Assembly: GCA_910584305.1 (NCBI GenBank)
Contig: CAJTZW010000007.1
Span: 34,804 to 66,803, forward strand
Source: an uncultured Bacilli bacterium
GTDB taxonomy: Bacteria; Bacillota_I; Bacilli_A; RF39; UBA660
Reading direction: 5' to 3'
DNA length: 32,000 nucleotides
Shown here: in pieces, positions 2,921 through 13,936 of the stretch
Numbering within the stretch: the stretch's first letter is position 1
Layout: each line of letters opens with the position of its first letter
Program-made: the position numbers and the translations under genes
Notes under the pieces: generated by a model
What the model was told of the DNA's origin: nothing
The model's input: the letters and a program-made list of their open reading frames with translations, nothing else
Databases searched by the model: none

Positions 2921-5086
2921 TTATGAAACTTCATATTTCCCACCAAAAGTAACCAAGAGCGAACTATCGGATGAAATCACAGAACCTTCTGGTATACTTT
3001 GATTTGTTACATATCCATTTCCCTCTAACGTATATGGAATATGTAATAGAGTACAAAGAGAAATCACATCACTTTTACTCCATCCAATAAGATTGGGCAT
3101 ATTATATATAGAAGAATTGGTAAGAAGAAGTACTTTATCCCCCGCAACAAGGGTTGTCCCTACACTCGGAAATTGATTGATAACACGACTTCCATCTCCA
3201 ATTATAATTGGATGTAATCCATATCCTCGCAACTCCTCTACAACAACTTCAATCGATTGGTTGGTATAAGATGAAACCACATACTCACTTACAGTAGACG
3301 CCTCTTCCCTTTCACTTAAATTTTCATACTTTGCAATACTCTTAATTACATCGGTTACAGCTGTATATACACCCGCACTGGTTCCCCAAAGAGGAGATTT
3401 CATAGCTGCATATATAATATACTCAGGATCTTCTGCAGGAAACATTCCTGCAAAAGAGAATATATAGTGATTTTCATTGGTTTCTATCACATAAGATCCA
3501 AGCTCTGCATTATAAATTTGTGAAGTTCCTGTTTTTCCAATTATATTGAGTCCTTCTACATTATAAGCACGCCCTGTCGTTGCACCTATATCATTACCAT
3601 GAATTGTATTATACATAAGTTCACGTATCTTATCTGTAGTAGATTTTTGTACAATAGAATCACTAACTTCAATTTGTCTTTCATAATAAATCTCATTGGT
3701 ATCCGGATTTACAATTTGCTTTACAATATGAGGTTTTACCATTTTACCATCATTAGCAACAATCGTTAGAGCCTGTAATTGTTGAATGGCAGTAGTTGTA
3801 ATTCCTTGGCCGAATCCAGCATTTGCTACTTCTACCTCATAATTAAAATTAACACGTCCTTTTTGCTCCCTAGAAAGTTCTATTCCCGTAATATCACCAA
3901 AGCCATATTTTTTAAAACAATCACGGAGTTCATCCTTTGATAAATAAGTACGAATTAAATTGACAATTCCAACATTACTAGAATATTCATATCCTTTATC
4001 GAAAGTAACTGCTCCCCAACCTATAGTATTCCAATCACGAATTGTCGCATCCGCCACAGAAACACTTCCAGATTGATATAATGCACTTCCATCATATTTC
4101 CCACTATCAATCGCACACATATATGTATATGTCTTCATAACAGATCCTGGTTCAAATGTCATTGTAACAAGTGGATTCTCGTAATTTACAATATTACGAA
4201 CATTAGGATCAAAAGATGGAGTTGAAGAAGTCGCTAAAATATCACCCGTTTTAGCATTCATTACGGTAAGTTGTAGCCACTCTGGAGAATAGGTAGTATT
4301 CGAAGCCTTAACCGCACTTTCTACAAACCTCTGCACTGTAGAATCAATCGTTAAATAAATATCATACCCATCAATCGCATCAATTGATACTTCTTTCGTC
4401 CCTGAAATTTTATAGCCATAGCGGTCTTGCTGATATTCCAAATAACCATCGGTTCCCTTTAATAAATCATTATACTTTAACTCAATTCCAAGTTCACCAG
4501 CAATTTGAATAGAAGAATTATTATTTTCATCTGTAACCTCTGTATCCTTAGCATATCCAATGACATAGGAAGCAAAATCACCATTAGGATAATATCGTTT
4601 TTGGCTCTCTATAAAATCAATTCCAGAAAGATTCAAGCTTTCAATTTCCTCTTTTTTTAACTCAGTAATTCCTCTTCCTCCTGGACCAAGTTCTACCTGA
4701 AATTTATCCATAGACATACGTTCAACTAAAGTAGAGACTTCCATTTCTAGTACAGGTGCCAAAGCCTCTGCTGTCATTTGTACATCCTTTACATAATCAT
4801 CTTTCCTACTTTCACGGCTAGCTTCTAAATAAGCAATCACTGTATAAGAACTGACATTCACTGCTAAAATATTTTGATTCGCATCATACACCGTTCCGCG
4901 GGTAGCAGAAAGTGTTTTCTTTACGGTACTTCTACTTGCCGCAAACTCATCCATATCCTTACCATACACCTTGCCTGATAATGACAAATAAGCAAATTGT
5001 AGATACAATAAAAAAATACAAAGTAAAAATACACCAAAAACAAATTTTGGAAAATTCCAAGTTTGTGTATTCCTCTTTGTATTCAT
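2921..5086 (-). CDS. class B penicillin-binding protein (FtsI/PBP2B/SpoVD family) with C-terminal PASTA repeats
   Basis: It has an N-terminal TM anchor, the transpeptidase motifs SVMK, SSN and KTGT, and two PASTA-like C-terminal repeats. It sits after ftsL in the dcw cluster. Confidence 0.9.
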   Translation of the reverse strand: MNTKRNTQTWNFPKFVFGVFLLCIFLLYLQFAYLSLSGKVYGKDMDEFAASRSTVKKTLSATRGTVYDANQNILAVNVSSYTVIAYLEASRESRKDDYVKDVQMTAEALAPVLEMEVSTLVERMSMDKFQVELGPGGRGITELKKEEIESLNLSGIDFIESQKRYYPNGDFASYVIGYAKDTEVTDENNNSSIQIAGELGIELKYNDLLKGTDGYLEYQQDRYGYKISGTKEVSIDAIDGYDIYLTIDSTVQRFVESAVKASNTTYSPEWLQLTVMNAKTGDILATSSTPSFDPNVRNIVNYENPLVTMTFEPGSVMKTYTYMCAIDSGKYDGSALYQSGSVSVADATIRDWNTIGWGAVTFDKGYEYSSNVGIVNLIRTYLSKDELRDCFKKYGFGDITGIELSREQKGRVNFNYEVEVANAGFGQGITTTAIQQLQALTIVANDGKMVKPHIVKQIVNPDTNEIYYERQIEVSDSIVQKSTTDKIRELMYNTIHGNDIGATTGRAYNVEGLNIIGKTGTSQIYNAELGSYVIETNENHYIFSFAGMFPAEDPEYIIYAAMKSPLWGTSAGVYTAVTDVIKSIAKYENLSEREEASTVSEYVVSSYTNQSIEVVVEELRGYGLHPIIIGDGSRVINQFPSVGTTLVAGDKVLLLTNSSIYNMPNLIGWSKSDVISLCTLLHIPYTLEGNGYVTNQSIPEGSVISSDSSLLVTFGGKYEVS

Positions 5087-6895: not shown

Positions 6896-8314
6896 CTACT
6901 TTCTTTTTCCAAAATCTTGGACTTCCTTATATACAAAGTTACATAATTTTGATAGTTGCTCTTTACCTATATAAATAACCCTACCTCCTGGAGGACTTAT
7001 TTTATGATTTCCGAAAACAATCCAAATCGCATTCAAATACTGCGTAGGCATAGAGGCATACCCATCTGTAAATATAATCTTATTATCTGCTTTAGTAAAA
7101 GAATTCACAGCCACAGTAAAGTCTGTTCCTCCACCACCCACAAGAGGTATATTATCTATATCACTATTATCCCTCACTTCATAAAAACCATAAAACACAG
7201 TATCAAAGCATCCAACTTTCATTTTTGAATTTTGTAAAATATTTTTACATTCTCTAAGAAAATTTCTAAGTAACACTTCACTGATAGACCCACTTGTATC
7301 AAGCAGTATCTCCGTTTCACTAGACTCTATTTCTTCTAAATGTGGTGTCACAACACCATATTCTATCGATGCATTTTGAAATGACCAATCTTCTAACCCC
7401 TTGACTGTTTTGGATAATAAGGTTGTCCAATCAACAAATGAATCTGCCACACCAATTTCATCTATATTTCTTACAGAAGAATTTGTAGAAATTCCAACAC
7501 CCACAGATTGTTTTGCTAAAGCATTTCTTAATTCCTCCAACTGTTTTTTTCTTTCTACCTTGTTTTGTTTAAAAACCTTTTTTTCTCCTAATTCCGCTAC
7601 CTTTTGTACTTGTTCTTTAATTTTCTTTTCTCGCTCATCCTGTAAAGATACTTGTCCATTTTCCTTAGAATCTTCTTTTCTCTGGTTTTTCCTAAAAACC
7701 TTATCTAAAAAACTACGATTAGAGCTTTGTTGTTTTGGCTCTCCTTTTTCTTTTAAGTTATTATCATCCGGCTGGTTCTTTTGCTTCTGCTTCTCAATAG
7801 CCTTGTCCCACATACTATGTGAATCATGCCCAACGCAATTATTTCCTTTTTCTGGTGTAGAATTTCTATTTTTAGACAGTGAATTTTCATCATTTTTGTT
7901 TTCCCGTTTTTCTAATAACCGTTGATATAGTTCCTCTGAATCATAATTAAGAGCATCAGAAATCTCAACAACGTTATCCACCAACGTCAATCCATCATTC
8001 TTTAAAAACGCATTAATCACAGCATCTGTTGCTTTATTCCATGTTTCTTTGTCTTTACCTTCACTTCGATAAATATGATTTAAAGCGACATGGCAGACTT
8101 CGTGTGCAAAGACAAACACCTGCTCACTTTCTGACAAATTATTTATAAAATCTGGATGATAAAAAATAGTTTCGGCATCTGTTCCTGCCGTCGGATTTCC
8201 ATAATCATCTACACAATCCATTGTCTCAACATAATTTAAATTTGCTGTTATACTCCCAAAGATAGGATATTGAACAAGTAATTTACTTTTTATTTTATTT
8301 ATATCAACACTCAT
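6896..8314 (-). CDS. HExxH metallopeptidase-like domain / K,E,Q-rich linker / VWA domain protein (DUF2201-like partner of MoxR ATPases)
   Basis: The N-terminal domain carries VFVFAHEVCHVALNH (HExxH). A ~130-aa low-complexity K/E/Q/N linker follows. The C-terminal domain has the MIDAS-like motif ILLDTSGSIS and a ...GGGGTDF... segment. Its start lies 1 nt after the upstream ORF's stop. Confidence 0.75.
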   Translation of the reverse strand: MSVDINKIKSKLLVQYPIFGSITANLNYVETMDCVDDYGNPTAGTDAETIFYHPDFINNLSESEQVFVFAHEVCHVALNHIYRSEGKDKETWNKATDAVINAFLKNDGLTLVDNVVEISDALNYDSEELYQRLLEKRENKNDENSLSKNRNSTPEKGNNCVGHDSHSMWDKAIEKQKQKNQPDDNNLKEKGEPKQQSSNRSFLDKVFRKNQRKEDSKENGQVSLQDEREKKIKEQVQKVAELGEKKVFKQNKVERKKQLEELRNALAKQSVGVGISTNSSVRNIDEIGVADSFVDWTTLLSKTVKGLEDWSFQNASIEYGVVTPHLEEIESSETEILLDTSGSISEVLLRNFLRECKNILQNSKMKVGCFDTVFYGFYEVRDNSDIDNIPLVGGGGTDFTVAVNSFTKADNKIIFTDGYASMPTQYLNAIWIVFGNHKISPPGGRVIYIGKEQLSKLCNFVYKEVQDFGKRK

Positions 8315-8315
8315 T

Positions 8316-8708
8316 TTATATATGTACCATCAATGAATATATATCTTCATCAATAGGATGTTCCTTTAAATTTGAACAAGTAACAAAAATCATACAATTT
8401 GGTGGCAACTCAAATGTACTAATTTTCTTATATTTTAAAATCTCCAGAAACTTTCTTTGTTCCTCTTTTGGAATTTGATTAATACAGTCAATCACTAACA
8501 AAGGCACAGCCTGATGTAATACCTCACTATACCATTGGGGCGACATATAATGAACATCCTCATAATGTCCTGACAACAAAGAAACATCACAATTAGCAGG
8601 CAAAACAACTCCCCCCTGAATTGCATTGGCAGAAATATCTTCTAATAGAATTGGAAAAACTCCCGCTTTTACATATTCATTCAAAAATTTTAATCTCTCA
8701 TTATTCAT
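8316..8708 (-). CDS. small AAA-like protein lacking a P-loop (degenerate MoxR-type core)
   Basis: PLLVIDCINQIPKEEQRKFLEILKYKKISTFELPPNCMIFVTCSN...IDEDIYSLMVHI parallels ILFLDEISNVKSNYILNLAFNLVLDRELDGKWQLPENARVVVAGN...PLFNRMAHVFI in the upstream ATPase. It has no GxxxxGK[ST] motif and reads DC instead of DE. An ATGA overlap joins it to the upstream ORF. Confidence 0.45.
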   Translation of the reverse strand: MNNERLKFLNEYVKAGVFPILLEDISANAIQGGVVLPANCDVSLLSGHYEDVHYMSPQWYSEVLHQAVPLLVIDCINQIPKEEQRKFLEILKYKKISTFELPPNCMIFVTCSNLKEHPIDEDIYSLMVHI

Positions 8709-10324: not shown

Positions 10325-10373
10325 TCCGTTCGTGGAGATTGTAGATAAATTAGAGAACGGTAAAGCTGGGCGA
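10313..10373 (-). promoter_or_regulatory. nested inverted repeat at the 3' boundary of the VR (candidate DGR target-recognition hairpin/cruciform)
   Basis: On the plus strand, tcgccca (10313-10319) pairs with tgggcga (10367-10373) and ccgttc (10326-10331) pairs with gaacgg (10355-10360). The internal loop is a symmetric 6x6 and the apical loop is 23 nt. The partner arms are absent next to the TR. Confidence 0.35.
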
Positions 10374-10439
10374 CCACACCCAAATCGTTTAATGACTCTA
10401 GTCTAGATACTAGTTCCAATTCAGTAAACGACGCGCGCG
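10366..10439 (-). repeat. DGR variable repeat (VR)
   Basis: This 74 nt matches 11957-12030 at 64/74 positions. The 10 mismatches (10383, 10384, 10392, 10401, 10403, 10407, 10413, 10419, 10422, 10426) all correspond to T on the TR plus strand, which is A on the coding (minus) strand. Confidence 0.9.
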
Positions 10440-10720
10440 TCATTATCACCGTCATCAGTTTTTGTCCAATACCAGCCTGTACGGCTTTCTAATGAAGTAT
10501 CTCCATTATAGTGATATCCACTAGACACATAACCACCTAAAAGAATTGCAAAATCTGTGATTGCTGCACTTGTTCCCCTTTTTTGAATAACATCTAATGC
10601 TTGTGTTCCAAATATTTGTTCCTCTGTTAAAAACGTAAAATCATTCATACGTAAATCACCAACCTCATAATAACATAATTTTCTGAAATAGAAAATACAA
10701 TCTTCTACTTTTTTTGACAA
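10421..10720 (-). CDS. DGR target ORF fragment, C-type-lectin-like 'WWLRS...VRPAL' type domain truncated by a stop inside the VR
   Basis: The sequence ...FTFLTEEQIFG...TGWYWTKTDDGDNDARVVY* continues past the stops as IGTSI*TRVIKRFGCGRPAL. The listed start is TTG at 10720 and overlaps the RT stop; an alternative ATG at 10648 has a GGTGAT Shine-Dalgarno. The last 6 sense codons and the stop lie in the VR. Confidence 0.6.
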   Translation of the reverse strand: MSKKVEDCIFYFRKLCYYEVGDLRMNDFTFLTEEQIFGTQALDVIQKRGTSAAITDFAILLGGYVSSGYHYNGDTSLESRTGWYWTKTDDGDNDARVVY

Positions 10721-11739
10721 AAATTGGAAATAACTGCCAATTTTAGCCTTGAGCTTTCACTTGTATCCTTAATATGATTATAATATGCATTCTTCCTAGC
10801 ATATATATATTTTTCATCCACTAACCCCTTATTCTCTAATTTTGCTAAAGTTTTAAGATGTCTTTTTAATCTCACTCTAGAAGAATTTCGCAATTTTTGA
10901 ATTACCTTTCCTGTCGGTGTTAAATAGTGACAATATCCTAAAAAGTCAATCCCATTTTTTACCTTGCCTATTTGTGTTTTATTATTTAGGGATAAATCAA
11001 GCCCTGTTTTACAAAGATTTTTTATTTCTTCCAAACAATATTTTAAATATGCCTTATCACTATGTATTAAAATCATATCATCCATATAACGAATATAATA
11101 TTTAATTTGTAATTTTTCTTTGATGAAGTGATCCACTTTATTTAAGTATAAAAGAGCAAACCACTGACTTGATTGATTCCCTAGTGGCAATCCTATACTG
11201 TTTAAAGAGGATTCATTAGAAATCAATTTTTGTATCATCCACATCTCATCCTCTGAAAAAGAGATTTCCCTCAAAAGATTTTGTAATATTCGATGATTTA
11301 TACTAGGAAAATATTTTTTAATATCACACTTTAAAAAATAAAATTCATTATTTTTGCACAAAAAGTATTCCCTCCTTAAAAAACTTTCCAATCGATGAAT
11401 TGCAAAGGATGTTCCTTTTTCCTTTCTACAAGCCGCATTATCGTATATAAGTTTTCTCTCTATTCTAGACTTTAAACAAACATCACAAAAACACCTTATT
11501 AATACTCTATCCTTATAGGGTGGCGCTTCAATCAAGCGTTCTTTGGGTTCATATACAATAAACTTTCTATACCCACCTAACTCATATTTTTTAGTAACAA
11601 TTTCATTCATCATATTCACTATATTAGCACTTAAATTTGCTTCAAAACGTATAACCTCTCCTTTATGTTGTTTTGATTTTCTACACTCCTTATGTGCACT
11701 ATATAAATTTTCAAATGTAAATATATCTTCTAACTTCAT
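10705..11739 (-). CDS. DGR-type reverse transcriptase
   Basis: The catalytic motif is YIRYMDDMILIH (YMDD). The DGR-diagnostic motif-4 LGNQSSQ ([ILV]GxxxSQ) and the N-terminal YEPKERLIEAPPYKDRVL are also present. I prefer the ATG at 11739 (GGAGGT 5 nt upstream, MKLEDIFTFENLYSAHKECRK...) over the ORF-track start at 11790. Confidence 0.9.
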   Translation of the reverse strand: MKLEDIFTFENLYSAHKECRKSKQHKGEVIRFEANLSANIVNMMNEIVTKKYELGGYRKFIVYEPKERLIEAPPYKDRVLIRCFCDVCLKSRIERKLIYDNAACRKEKGTSFAIHRLESFLRREYFLCKNNEFYFLKCDIKKYFPSINHRILQNLLREISFSEDEMWMIQKLISNESSLNSIGLPLGNQSSQWFALLYLNKVDHFIKEKLQIKYYIRYMDDMILIHSDKAYLKYCLEEIKNLCKTGLDLSLNNKTQIGKVKNGIDFLGYCHYLTPTGKVIQKLRNSSRVRLKRHLKTLAKLENKGLVDEKYIYARKNAYYNHIKDTSESSRLKLAVISNFCQKK

Positions 11740-11956
11740 TTTACCTCCAAAAAAAGAACACCCCTTATAACGCACAAAGAATGCATACACATCCGTTGTT
11801 TGTGTAGGTGTTTTATATATTTGTCCACCGCACTGATTTTCTTTTAGCGGTTAGAAAAGAAGTAAATTCCTTCACTTTATAGCACGGATATACCCTACTT
11901 AGAATATATTTCTCTGGCCTGTTTTCTAGATTCATAAAATCTCTTCAAAAGTGAAT

Positions 11957-12030
11957 CTGGGCGACCACACCCATTTCGTTTATTGACTCTATTTTAGTTA
12001 CTATTTCCATTTTAGTTAACGACGCGCGCG
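11957..12030 (-). repeat. DGR template repeat (TR), non-coding
   Basis: This is the A-rich copy of the 74-nt repeat, with 27 A on the minus strand. It lies 217 nt upstream of the RT start and 72 nt downstream of avd, and no ORF covers it. In the target frame it reads VV-AAC-TAA-AAT-GGA-AAT-AGT-AAC-TAA-AAT-AGA-GTC-AAT-AAA-CGA-AAT-GGG-TGT-GGT-CGC-CCA. Confidence 0.9.
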
Positions 12031-12708: not shown

Positions 12709-13248
12709 CTATACAACAAATAAATCTCCTATAAAATTAATTCCATCGCTTACAAAATTTATAAACAAATAGAATGTATCCCGAATTCTGTTTTTCTTAT
12801 AATCTTTCTTTGTAATCTTAAAAACGACACCATCTCTACATGATATAACATCACACTTTTGATGGTATCTTGCATAACGTTTCTTTATGATATCTATATC
12901 AATATCTTCATTTTTAACAAAAAGAACAACACTATACTCTGCCAAATATAAGCTATCTGAAATAAATCGTCTATGATACCCATGCAAATCATCATAAGAA
13001 GCAATAATATATTGAATATTTTGTTTACGAAATTTCTTTCGAATCTTACGATAAGAAATCTTTTTAGATGGACCCCTTTTTTTACCTTCCCCACCTGTAT
13101 AATTTAAATCTGATAATACTGTAAATGTTGTAATATTCTGATTTTTATCAATTTCAGATAACAATTTCTCATCTAAACTGCCAAATCCCAATACACTTCC
13201 ATGCATTGTACGAGAATTATCTAATAAAACCTTTTCTATTTTATTCAT
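12709..13248 (-). CDS. hypothetical protein with a C-terminal hydrophobic segment
   Basis: This ORF is wedged between tcdA (8-nt overlap using the ATG at 13248 with a GGTGAT Shine-Dalgarno) and avd (its stop abuts the avd frame). It has a basic patch KKRGPSKKISYRKIRKKFRK. I recognise no family. Confidence 0.45.
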   Translation of the reverse strand: MNKIEKVLLDNSRTMHGSVLGFGSLDEKLLSEIDKNQNITTFTVLSDLNYTGGEGKKRGPSKKISYRKIRKKFRKQNIQYIIASYDDLHGYHRRFISDSLYLAEYSVVLFVKNEDIDIDIIKKRYARYHQKCDVISCRDGVVFKITKKDYKKNRIRDTFYLFINFVSDGINFIGDLFVV

Positions 13249-13936
13249 AAACATCACCTATCATATGGTGTACAAGATAACTTGTACAAAGAAGTCCCGC
13301 TACACTTGGAACAAAGGAACAAGAAGCAATCGTAATACCCTCATGTGGTATAGGTCTCTCCATACTACAAACAACAGGAACTTTACCTGTAATATGCTCA
13401 TCACGTACCATTTTTCGAATAATTTTCGCAATTGGATCATAAGAAGTTTTTCGAATATCCATAACTTGAAGTTTAAGAGGATCTAGCTTATTTCCCGTTC
13501 CCATACAAGAAACAAAAGGAATATTTCTAGAACTACATACACGAATAATCTCCTTTTTTACTTCTATAGTATCACAAGCATCAACGACATAATCCACTTC
13601 AGATGTGATTCGCGTAGCAATTTTCTCTGGTAAAATAAATTCACAAATCCCTATAACATTACACTCTGGATTAATATCCAAAATTCTCTCTTTCATAACA
13701 TCCACTTTATATCTTCCAACCGTTGAATGAAGTGCAATAATTTGGCGATTGATATTGGTAATATCAACTGTATCACCATCTATTATAATAAGCTTACGAA
13801 TGCCAAGACGGGCTAGCGACTCTACAACATATCCACCAACTCCACCAATTCCTATAACCAAAACGGTTTTATTTTGAATGATTTCTACTTTATCTTGTAA
13901 CAAAAGTTCTAATCTTGTCCATTCCATATGTAACAC
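13241..13936 (-). CDS. tcdA: tRNA threonylcarbamoyladenosine dehydratase (ThiF/HesA-family, TcdA-like)
   Basis: VLVIGIGGVGGYVVESLARLGIRKLIIIDGDTVDITNINRQI is an E1-like Rossmann motif, and the ~230-aa size is typical of TcdA/CsdL. Confidence 0.8.
   Translation of the reverse strand: MLHMEWTRLELLLQDKVEIIQNKTVLVIGIGGVGGYVVESLARLGIRKLIIIDGDTVDITNINRQIIALHSTVGRYKVDVMKERILDINPECNVIGICEFILPEKIATRITSEVDYVVDACDTIEVKKEIIRVCSSRNIPFVSCMGTGNKLDPLKLQVMDIRKTSYDPIAKIIRKMVRDEHITGKVPVVCSMERPIPHEGITIASCSFVPSVAGLLCTSYLVHHMIGDVYE

Follow-up and report, generated by a model that had tools for sequence, protein, structure and literature searches.

The subject of this study is a diversity-generating retroelement (DGR) and its target gene in a 32,000-nt stretch of DNA from an uncultured Bacilli bacterium (GenBank assembly GCA_910584305.1, contig CAJTZW010000007.1, positions 34,804 to 66,803 of the forward strand), referred to as the window in the following. 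The element occupies the minus strand, in the order Avd-like gene, template repeat (TR), reverse transcriptase (RT), a 99-aa open reading frame (ORF) ending inside the variable repeat (VR), and a 539-aa ORF (Table 1). Its template contains two in-frame TAA codons, here called site 1 and site 2. A sequence-only reading of the window had drawn attention to these codons and had proposed that they make the DGR a potential stochastic ON/OFF switch as well as a diversifier.

Table 1. Location of the DGR, its target gene and the adjoining module genes in the window.
Feature	Coordinates	Strand	Remarks
TR	11951..12030	minus	in-frame TAA at 12014-12012 (site 1) and 11996-11994 (site 2)
VR	10360..10439	minus	TGA 10423-10421, TAG 10405-10403; GC-rich hairpin element GGGTGTGGTCGCCC at 3' end
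DGR reverse transcriptase	10705..11790	minus	361-aa ORF (344 aa in public assemblies); Pfam RVT_1, E 1.9e-15
Avd-like gene (putative accessory), 201 aa	12103..12708	minus	upstream of TR; residues 81-192 match Pfam bAvd and NCBIfam DivGenRetAVD
Target, N-terminal fragment, 99 codons	10421..10720	minus	ends at VR stop TGA 10423-10421
Target, C-terminal part, 539 codons	8705..10324	minus	rest of N-terminal module and predicted MoxR-class AAA+ ATPase; in frame with 99-aa ORF
130-aa gene	8316..8708	minus	4-nt overlap with target end; no family match
472-aa protein	6896..8314	minus	DUF2201_N metallopeptidase (HExxH) and VWA-like DUF2201; presumed AAA+ partner

The two repeats form an 80-nt direct repeat with 85% identity. 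Read on the minus strand, all ten differences within the core (12017/10426 to 11974/10383) are exchanges of a TR adenine, of which the core has 27, for another base in the VR, and between 12030 and 11957 the two copies do not differ at a single non-adenine position. As the differences are restricted to adenines, the upstream copy is the template repeat of a DGR and the downstream copy its variable repeat. In the frame of the 99-aa ORF, the TR codons are GCG CGC GTC GTT AAC TAA AAT GGA AAT AGT AAC TAA AAT AGA GTC AAT AAA CGA AAT GGG TGT GGT CGC CCA, and the VR has ...GTT TAC TGA ATT GGA ACT AGT ATC TAG ACT AGA GTC ATT AAA CGA TTT GGG... in the same frame. Besides seven AAY codons, the template contains two TAA, one AAA and one AGA codon from which stops can arise. 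When coordinates and codons were re-read, the sequence-only reading proved correct on the seven AAY codons, on the two template TAAs (12012-12014 and 11994-11996) and on the VR codons opposite them, TGA (10421-10423) and TAG (10403-10405), both of which are rewritten and both of which are stops. The 99-aa ORF, the VR and the 539-aa ORF share one frame of 672 codons, and the VR stops divide this single 671-aa gene into the two ORFs.

At their 3' ends, both repeats carry the GC-rich sequence TGGGTGTGGTCGCCCA (10382-10367 and 11973-11958, minus strand), a hairpin of 6 bp with a 4-nt loop, which may be a target-recognition structure as in other DGRs. Its TR copy is the one terminator-like match that a simple terminator scan gave in the TR; in a promoter scan, promoter-like sites were no commoner than in shuffled sequence. 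Directly past the shared element, at 11956/10365, the TR reads GAT TCA and the VR GCT TTA.

The RT contains the motif LGNQSSQ, which we take to resemble the signature of DGR RTs. In tblastn searches, its relatives include phage RTs of the DGR type with up to 44% identity, Bordetella phage records among them, and its relatives in metagenomes possess adenine-biased TR/VR pairs of their own. The matches of the Avd-like protein to bAvd (E 1.6e-4) and DivGenRetAVD (E 1.1e-7) are weak, both lying under the curated cut-offs, and its N-terminal extension of about 80 aa yielded no match. Beside the Avd-like gene lies a 182-aa ORF (12709-13257) with no family match and no homologue in any related locus. 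The flanks of the element are chromosomal, with mraZ, rsmH and a PBP gene on one side and a ThiF-family gene, sigE, spoIIGA and lexA on the other.

Variable-repeat alleles within one clone

Conspecific loci were found by exact look-up of the window proteins in public assemblies, and 17 of them were fetched and compared together with the window. Outside the VR, twelve assemblies, the window included, do not differ at any of 4,535 nt; no conspecific locus that extends to the TR departs from its core sequence, and the RT is intact wherever a locus covers it. The contigs come from the public runs ERR3199567, 597, 609, 620, 623, 631, 673, 683 and 695, SRR17071706 and SRR22869827. The VR of these loci occurs in 14 distinct haplotypes, which vary at many of the 26 variable TR-adenine positions and contain only three non-adenine changes in total. 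Given the identical flanks, the 14 haplotypes and the invariant TR, we conclude that this is one clone in which the VR has been rewritten repeatedly; the DGR is active. The GAT/GCT mismatch past the hairpin occurs without exception, in all 14 haplotypes as well as in each related species for which that codon could be aligned. Despite the TR adenine, this A-to-C difference is the 3' boundary of the exchanged segment (resembling IMH* versus IMH, the initiation of mutagenic homing elements of DGRs) and no product of mutagenesis.

Both sites exist in both states. Ten of the 14 haplotypes have a stop (TAA, TAG or TGA) at site 1 and four a sense codon (TCC, TTA, TCA, TAC); at site 2, ten likewise have one of the three stops and four are open (TAC, TAT, TCC, TTA). 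The sense residues at the TAA sites of this species are Ser, Leu and Tyr. Sense TNN codons therefore coexist with stops in assemblies of a single clone, and the fused gene of about 670 aa that the sequence-only reading had envisaged exists in one sample: the haplotype of locus L006 is open at both sites and encodes an uninterrupted 671-aa protein (P0123). The remaining 13 haplotypes are interrupted. The predicted products, each of which is found among the database records, are 99 aa long with six different last residues (a 99-aa product with a differing last residue was found in six other haplotypes), 105 aa long in haplotypes closed at site 2 alone, or 671 aa long.

The open L006 and L008, in which site 2 is closed, are equally long contigs from two runs. 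L003 and L010, assembled from one run with two assemblers, have an identical haplotype, and another haplotype recurs in three runs (L002/L013, L005, L014). Some contigs break at the VR (L005, L009, L014). A search of JGI metagenome contigs with a degenerate VR pattern, made for further conspecific haplotypes, returned no matches.

Some haplotypes deserve separate mention. The first six variable codons (CGC TAA AAT GGC GAT AGT) are common to L002 and L004, which diverge after them, as would be expected if one event had replaced only the 3' part of the VR. In L017, the codon equivalent to 10398-10396 of the window has changed from the AGA of the TR to TGA; AGA, AAA and AAG codons in these TRs are further sources of stops, each with a lower probability of about 0.05. 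Finally, two VRs carry 1-nt indels that throw the halves of the target out of frame, an insertion in L001 (5960-6030, AAT to AAC-G) and a deletion in L017 (~2781-2853). The annotated 562-aa ORF of L001 begins at an ATG that arose inside the VR.

The proportion of stops can be compared with the adenine error spectrum of the element itself. At the 22 variable TR adenines outside the two TAA codons, all haplotypes taken together, the adenine was kept at a frequency of 0.495 and replaced by G, C and T at 0.264, 0.134 and 0.107, respectively. From the frequencies of kept A (a) and of G (g), the expected probability of a stop per TAA is a² + 2ag = 0.51. It amounts to about half, and not to 3/16, because some 50% of the adenines are copied unchanged and G is the most frequent replacement. 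The sequence-only reading was thus right that TAA yields both stop and sense TNN codons, whereas the stop share of 3/16 that it implied is too low. With TAA in the TR, stops in the VR are no rare outcome, and the unusual feature of this system is the in-frame stop in the template.

Among the 28 site-states, 20 are stops, compared with an expectation of 0.51 (p = 0.02, one-sided, excess); among codons with a single substitution, nine of 15 are stops (expected 0.52, p = 0.6); and one of 14 haplotypes is open (expected 0.22, p = 0.33). Relative to the measured spectrum, stops are not depleted, and there is no sign of purifying selection against nonsense alleles. We also considered selection favouring stops and do not claim it: the single-substitution outcomes are neutral, and we do not press the excess because the haplotypes share ancestry and samples and are not independent. 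A dN/dS (non-synonymous versus synonymous substitution) comparison between two strains, L017 and the window, with four substitutions in the target, two synonymous and two not, had no power.

Template stops in related and unrelated elements

For comparison between species, one genome per species was scanned, which gave 79 target loci from metagenome-assembled genomes (MAGs) of gut 'Bacilli', 'Tenericutes' and similar organisms in human, mouse, rabbit and other hosts. An RT, in several cases only a fragment, lies upstream of the target in 31 of 78 loci, while 47 have none nearby. At L022, L031, L032, L053, L073, L074 and L082, RT fragments precede an intact target; these are decayed DGRs with a frozen VR. 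A homologue of the Avd-like gene is present in 20 of the 31 RT-bearing loci, and its position and conservation fit a DGR accessory protein.

The TR could be read in frame for 25 related DGRs (22 distinct TRs), including three close metagenome relatives. Twelve of the 25 have in-frame TR stops (TAA, TAG or TGA), mostly at sites 1 and 2. At site 1, the TAA of the window recurs in six other species (L021, L024, L027, L029, L049, L070), and a seventh has TAG (L034); at site 2, the window shares TAA with L038 and L062, and L024 and L029 have TGA. L019 and L050 carry TAA at other TR columns, in L050 at the first variable codon. In L093, the VR has TAA at site 1 and the TR lies off the contig. The corresponding VR codons are stops in L019, L021, L029, L062 and L093 and sense in L024, L027, L034, L038, L049, L050 and L070; in these reference genomes of related species, five of 13 codon instances are stops (expected 0.5, p = 0.58). 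The RTs of the stop-bearing relatives are 58-67% identical to that of the window, and in a tree of RTs, the elements with TAA or TAG at site 1 are scattered over a deep clade among others that have AAA, AAT or AAC there. Since TAA is common to orthologous TR columns, it is no private, recent lesion. With the spectrum measured above, the modelled probability that a rewrite is open is 0.22 for the window and L029, 0.24 for L024 and 0.40-0.51 for the nine other stop-bearing members.

As controls, we used 43 distant DGRs from the same metagenome scan, in which TR and VR were paired and the frame was set by at least five AAY codons. None of the 43 has an in-frame TR stop, and 37 lack any stop-capable codon (TAA, TAG, TGA, AAA, AAG, AGA). 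Their modelled probability of an open outcome, calculated with the spectrum of the window species, is 1.0 in the median and 0.90 at the lowest. With the related count taken as 12/26, related and control DGRs differ at p = 1e-6 (Fisher).

According to recent DGR papers, the placement of adenines in the TR prevents nonsense codons (e.g. 10.1101/2023.09.22.558884), as the sequence-only reading had also noted. In that paper, nonsense avoidance is listed among the features that selection must maintain and is proposed as a mark of a DGR under selection. Likewise, the RT of BPP-1 has been argued to be biased against stops even from AAA and AAG (PMC12875486), and a global survey of DGRs does not mention stops (PMC8144416). 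On TR stops, nonsense outcomes and phase variation by DGRs, the literature, of which our coverage is incomplete, yielded only stop avoidance and engineered stop-codon reporters; within the same coverage, we found no description of a stop-bearing template or an ON/OFF switch.

In most respects, the element resembles canonical DGRs such as those of Bordetella phage BPP-1 (Mtd), Treponema (TvpA) and Bacteroides (pilus-tip proteins): it combines an RT with an Avd-like gene, adenine-only TR/VR differences, an AAY-rich template, a GC-rich element, a fixed TR/VR mismatch at the 3' boundary and one-way flow from TR to VR. In contrast to them, its template holds in-frame TAA codons, by which about half of the outcomes per site are nonsense, its TR is short (about 75-80 nt), and its VR lies near the N-terminus of a 671-aa AAA+ protein of a cytoplasmic type, where canonical DGRs have theirs at the C-terminal tip of a binding protein.

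The target gene and its module

A search with the fused frame, in which both stops were swapped for sense residues, gave more than 3,000 homologues; among the 120 listed, most are 630-686 aa long, with about 96% query cover and 55-62% identity. Judging from these homologues, the uninterrupted form is the normal architecture of the target. Outside the VR, the target has no other lesion.

The AlphaFold model of the 671-aa form has a mean pLDDT (predicted local distance difference test) of 78. In Foldseek searches, its C-terminal half matches NorQ (9qhg_E, E 7e-8) and CbbQ (6l1q_A, E 3e-6), with RavA and McrB also among the matches listed. The family alignment shows no variation at the Walker A (GKS) and Walker B (DE) residues, and a few longer homologues carry precomputed AAA_5 matches. 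The C-terminal half is thus predicted to be a MoxR-class AAA+ ATPase of the NorQ/CbbQ type. Pfam, NCBIfam and PADLOC contain no family for the 671-aa or the 130-aa protein; among the catalogued anti-phage defence proteins of PADLOC, the 472-aa protein has no match either, and the RT alone matches generic RT models. The N-terminal module of 274 aa, which holds the VR, is modelled with a pTM (predicted template modelling score) of 0.87. Against PDB and BFVD, it returned nothing significant, the best DUF6273 match having an E of 0.19. Its matches to hidden Markov models are weak, namely Fib_succ_major at E 0.03 and DUF6273 at E 0.002 in two of 17 members, and PF19789 stands among the precomputed matches of two longer homologues. 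A C-type-lectin (FGE-sulfatase-like) or DUF6273-type fold is thus a candidate assignment for this module.

Two further genes accompany the target. The 472-aa gene, whose product matches PF13203 (DUF2201_N, E 2.5e-29) and PF09967 (VWA-like DUF2201, E 8e-13), lies downstream in 66 of 67 related loci of sufficient length, and the 130-aa gene is present in 75 of 79. Based on this gene content, the target is presumed to be the sensor-like subunit of a conserved module composed of the variable domain-ATPase, the 130-aa protein and the metallopeptidase/VWA protein, for which an intracellular recognition or conflict system is the simplest reading.

Several homologues and loci depart from this arrangement. 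In the homologues P0002, P0003 and P0004 (909-914 aa), the N-terminal variable module is duplicated within the protein, and at L018, L025, L035, L077 and L086, two to four paralogous target genes stand in a row. The overlapping loci L048 and L050, both from one 20-kb contig (CANAXT010000025.1), comprise several tandem target copies with identical VR regions and one adjoining DGR. In L028, the VR segment is gone in frame (~4756-4770, …DNDAR|SSNGV…) with TR and RT intact upstream, either by a real deletion or by assembly collapse.

The module invites comparison with DGR-linked NTPase conflict systems, namely the MoxR-vWA 'VMAP ternary' systems (Kaur et al. 2020, PMC7159879) and the putative antigen sensors of Thiohalocapsa PB-PSB1 (10.1101/2023.09.22.558884). 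As in these systems, a chromosomal DGR diversifies the presumed ligand-sensing domain of a MoxR-class AAA+/VWA module. There, however, the variable domain is an FGS/C-type-lectin domain on a vWA or STAND protein, whereas here it is a DUF6273-like domain (a weak match) on the N-terminus of the ATPase. Furthermore, the partner in the window is a DUF2201 metallopeptidase/VWA protein, unlike in those systems, and the hosts are gut Bacilli rather than cyanobacteria or multicellular proteobacteria. The target also resembles the NorQ/NorD and CbbQ/CbbO pairs in the structural match of its C-terminal half and in its adjoining VWA gene, but it is not a member of their sequence families, has an additional N-terminal module of 300 aa, and its partner carries a metallopeptidase domain.

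Interpretation of the template stops

We consider it very probable that the locus is an active chromosomal DGR whose template carries in-frame TAA codons and whose target alternates between a diversified full-length form and stumps. Mutagenic retrohoming would copy the TR into the VR with adenine-specific errors, by which TAA becomes TNN: a stop if both adenines are kept or if one changes to G (~0.5 per site), and otherwise Phe, Leu, Ser, Tyr, Cys or Trp. The VR corresponds to codons 96-120 of 671, and a stop there would remove the entire AAA+ ATPase. The gene would then flip between the 671-aa form and stumps of 99 or 105 aa, with about one rewrite in four to five being open, and an OFF allele would be reopened by the next retrohoming event.

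The truncated alleles are probably functionally null, because the VR lies so early in the gene and no good ribosome-binding site precedes the 539-aa ORF. They should also be reopenable, because TR, RT and Avd-like gene all precede the target and do not require it to be translated, and the 3' element of the VR is untouched; rewriting would accordingly continue from OFF alleles. As in a phase-variable locus, open and interrupted alleles are found in assemblies that are identical outside the VR, and we infer reversibility from the intact TR, RT and VR 3' element. The idea of a stochastic ON/OFF potential coupled to diversification, put forward by the sequence-only reading, is therefore supported by the coexistence of open and stop alleles in one clone and by the stops in orthologous TRs.

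In common with classical phase variation by slipped-strand mispairing or invertible promoters, such a locus would have stochastic, heritable and reversible ON/OFF states, a local mutational mechanism and frequent OFF alleles. It differs in that switching would proceed by template-directed retrohoming, in that every ON state would also be a new protein variant, and in that the ON:OFF ratio would be set by template codons instead of repeat length or an invertase.

Several points weigh against this view. Both the full-length product and the inertness of the stumps are predicted from the genes alone, and the 539-aa ORF might initiate independently, even if no well-spaced Shine-Dalgarno sequence precedes its GTG. 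The assemblies yield only the dominant haplotype of each sample, and most samples appear to come from one sequencing series; for this reason, and because L002 and L004 have codons in common, the haplotypes are not fully independent. The indels of L001 and L017 may have arisen in retrohoming itself or, the stretch being hypervariable, in assembly. Among the related species, L027 and L049 have AGA and CCG, respectively, in the VR opposite the site-1 TAA of the TR; both differ from it at the T, which adenine mutagenesis cannot reach, and this suggests either a recent AAA-to-TAA change in the TR or repair of the stop by point mutation. In L050, the TR/VR pairing has several non-adenine mismatches.

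A separate question is why the template stops persist. With a chance that we put slightly below even, they are a collateral cost: T-first TR codons would be kept because they supply Trp, Tyr, Phe and Cys at two binding-site positions, and the stops would be an unselected by-product in a module that is mostly dispensable, without any switch. Site 2 speaks for this, where 66 matched homologue VRs have 33 Trp, nine Cys, five Tyr and two Phe and where the TR column shows TGG, TGA and TAA, as if stepwise G-to-A changes had widened the variability at the cost of stops. Moreover, the stop frequencies match the neutral expectation, and the module often occurs without a DGR (no more than 31 of 78 loci have an RT match). 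Yet Tyr, Phe, Ser and Cys could be had free of stops from TAT or TAC and a fixed Trp from TGG, which makes TAA a costly route to aromatic residues; the stops are in slight excess (p = 0.02) instead of being depleted; and a trait that disables 50-78% of rewrites persists over deeply diverged lineages. In the same 66 VRs, site 1, which the sequence-only reading had aligned with an aromatic position, is mostly Lys, Phe, Tyr or Ile and is not fixed as aromatic. The description of an 'aromatic-biased diversifier' in that reading applies only loosely, the sense residues being Ser, Leu and Tyr in this species, with Trp and Cys at site 2 in others.

Alternatively, and as a tentative possibility, the TR stops are kept by selection as a programmed ON/OFF dial, which would make the DGR a phase-variation device as well as a diversifier, with most cells OFF and a minority seeded with new receptors. 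A MoxR-AAA+/VWA-metallopeptidase sensor that is costly or potentially self-reactive would be kept OFF in most cells, and the OFF state may in this way benefit the host. How many stop-capable codons the template holds would tune the ON fraction, to ~0.5 with one and ~0.22 with two. The persistence in deep lineages, the undepleted stops and the existence of stop-free TAY and TGG alternatives lean weakly towards selection.

Decay, in which TAA is a recent disabling mutation of the TR and the target is on its way to becoming a pseudogene, might be suspected from the 13 interrupted haplotypes and from the loci that retain RT fragments alone. We regard it as very unlikely: TAA stands at the same TR columns in many species whose RTs share just 63-67% identity, neither the RT nor the Avd-like gene is damaged and the element is active, the 2-kb target is free of lesions outside the VR, its Walker A and B residues are invariant, and an open 671-aa allele exists. 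The orthologous TR stops and the open allele led us to reject a recent lesion.

Still more improbable is recoding, by which TGA, TAG or TAA would be reassigned or read through and the gene would always be full length. It comes to mind because some related MAGs are labelled Tenericutes or Mollicutes, and some lineages of these groups read TGA as Trp. At the two sites, however, all three stop codons occur, and we know of no code that reassigns all three. Translation table 11 gives long open ORFs for mraZ, rsmH, PBP, sigE, spoIIGA and lexA, and the window contains no tRNA gene and hence no visible suppressor. Recoding was discarded on account of the three stops and the normally encoded flanking genes.

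Scarcely credible, finally, is an assembly artefact in which mixed reads of the VR were stitched into chimeric stop codons, since the two adenines of a codon are adjacent and any k-mer spans both, so that no chimera can form within it, and although the VR is hypervariable, with contig breaks and two 1-nt indels, independent assemblers and runs agree on stop-bearing haplotypes, whose stops occur solely at TR-TAA (or AGA) codons as the mechanism predicts; chimeras were excluded on these grounds.

An active family of DGRs therefore breaks the stop-avoidance rule at conserved template positions, and in natural samples most alleles of its target are interrupted, reading as nulls that could be reopened. 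That a DGR template which encodes stop codons serves in phase variation is plausible but unproven. If the stops are selected, DGRs would be a further and novel mechanism of phase variation in bacteria, with a new receptor arising at each ON event, and the locus would show how a hypervariable intracellular sensor might be kept harmless to its host, comparable to self-tolerance in adaptive immunity. If they are only tolerated, the locus would gauge how weak purifying selection on such a module is in the gut and would make the unfiltered adenine errors of a DGR RT readable from natural samples; it would also warn annotators that split targets beside DGRs may be live alleles and not pseudogenes. 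For engineered DGRs, template stops suggest a design for switchable libraries.

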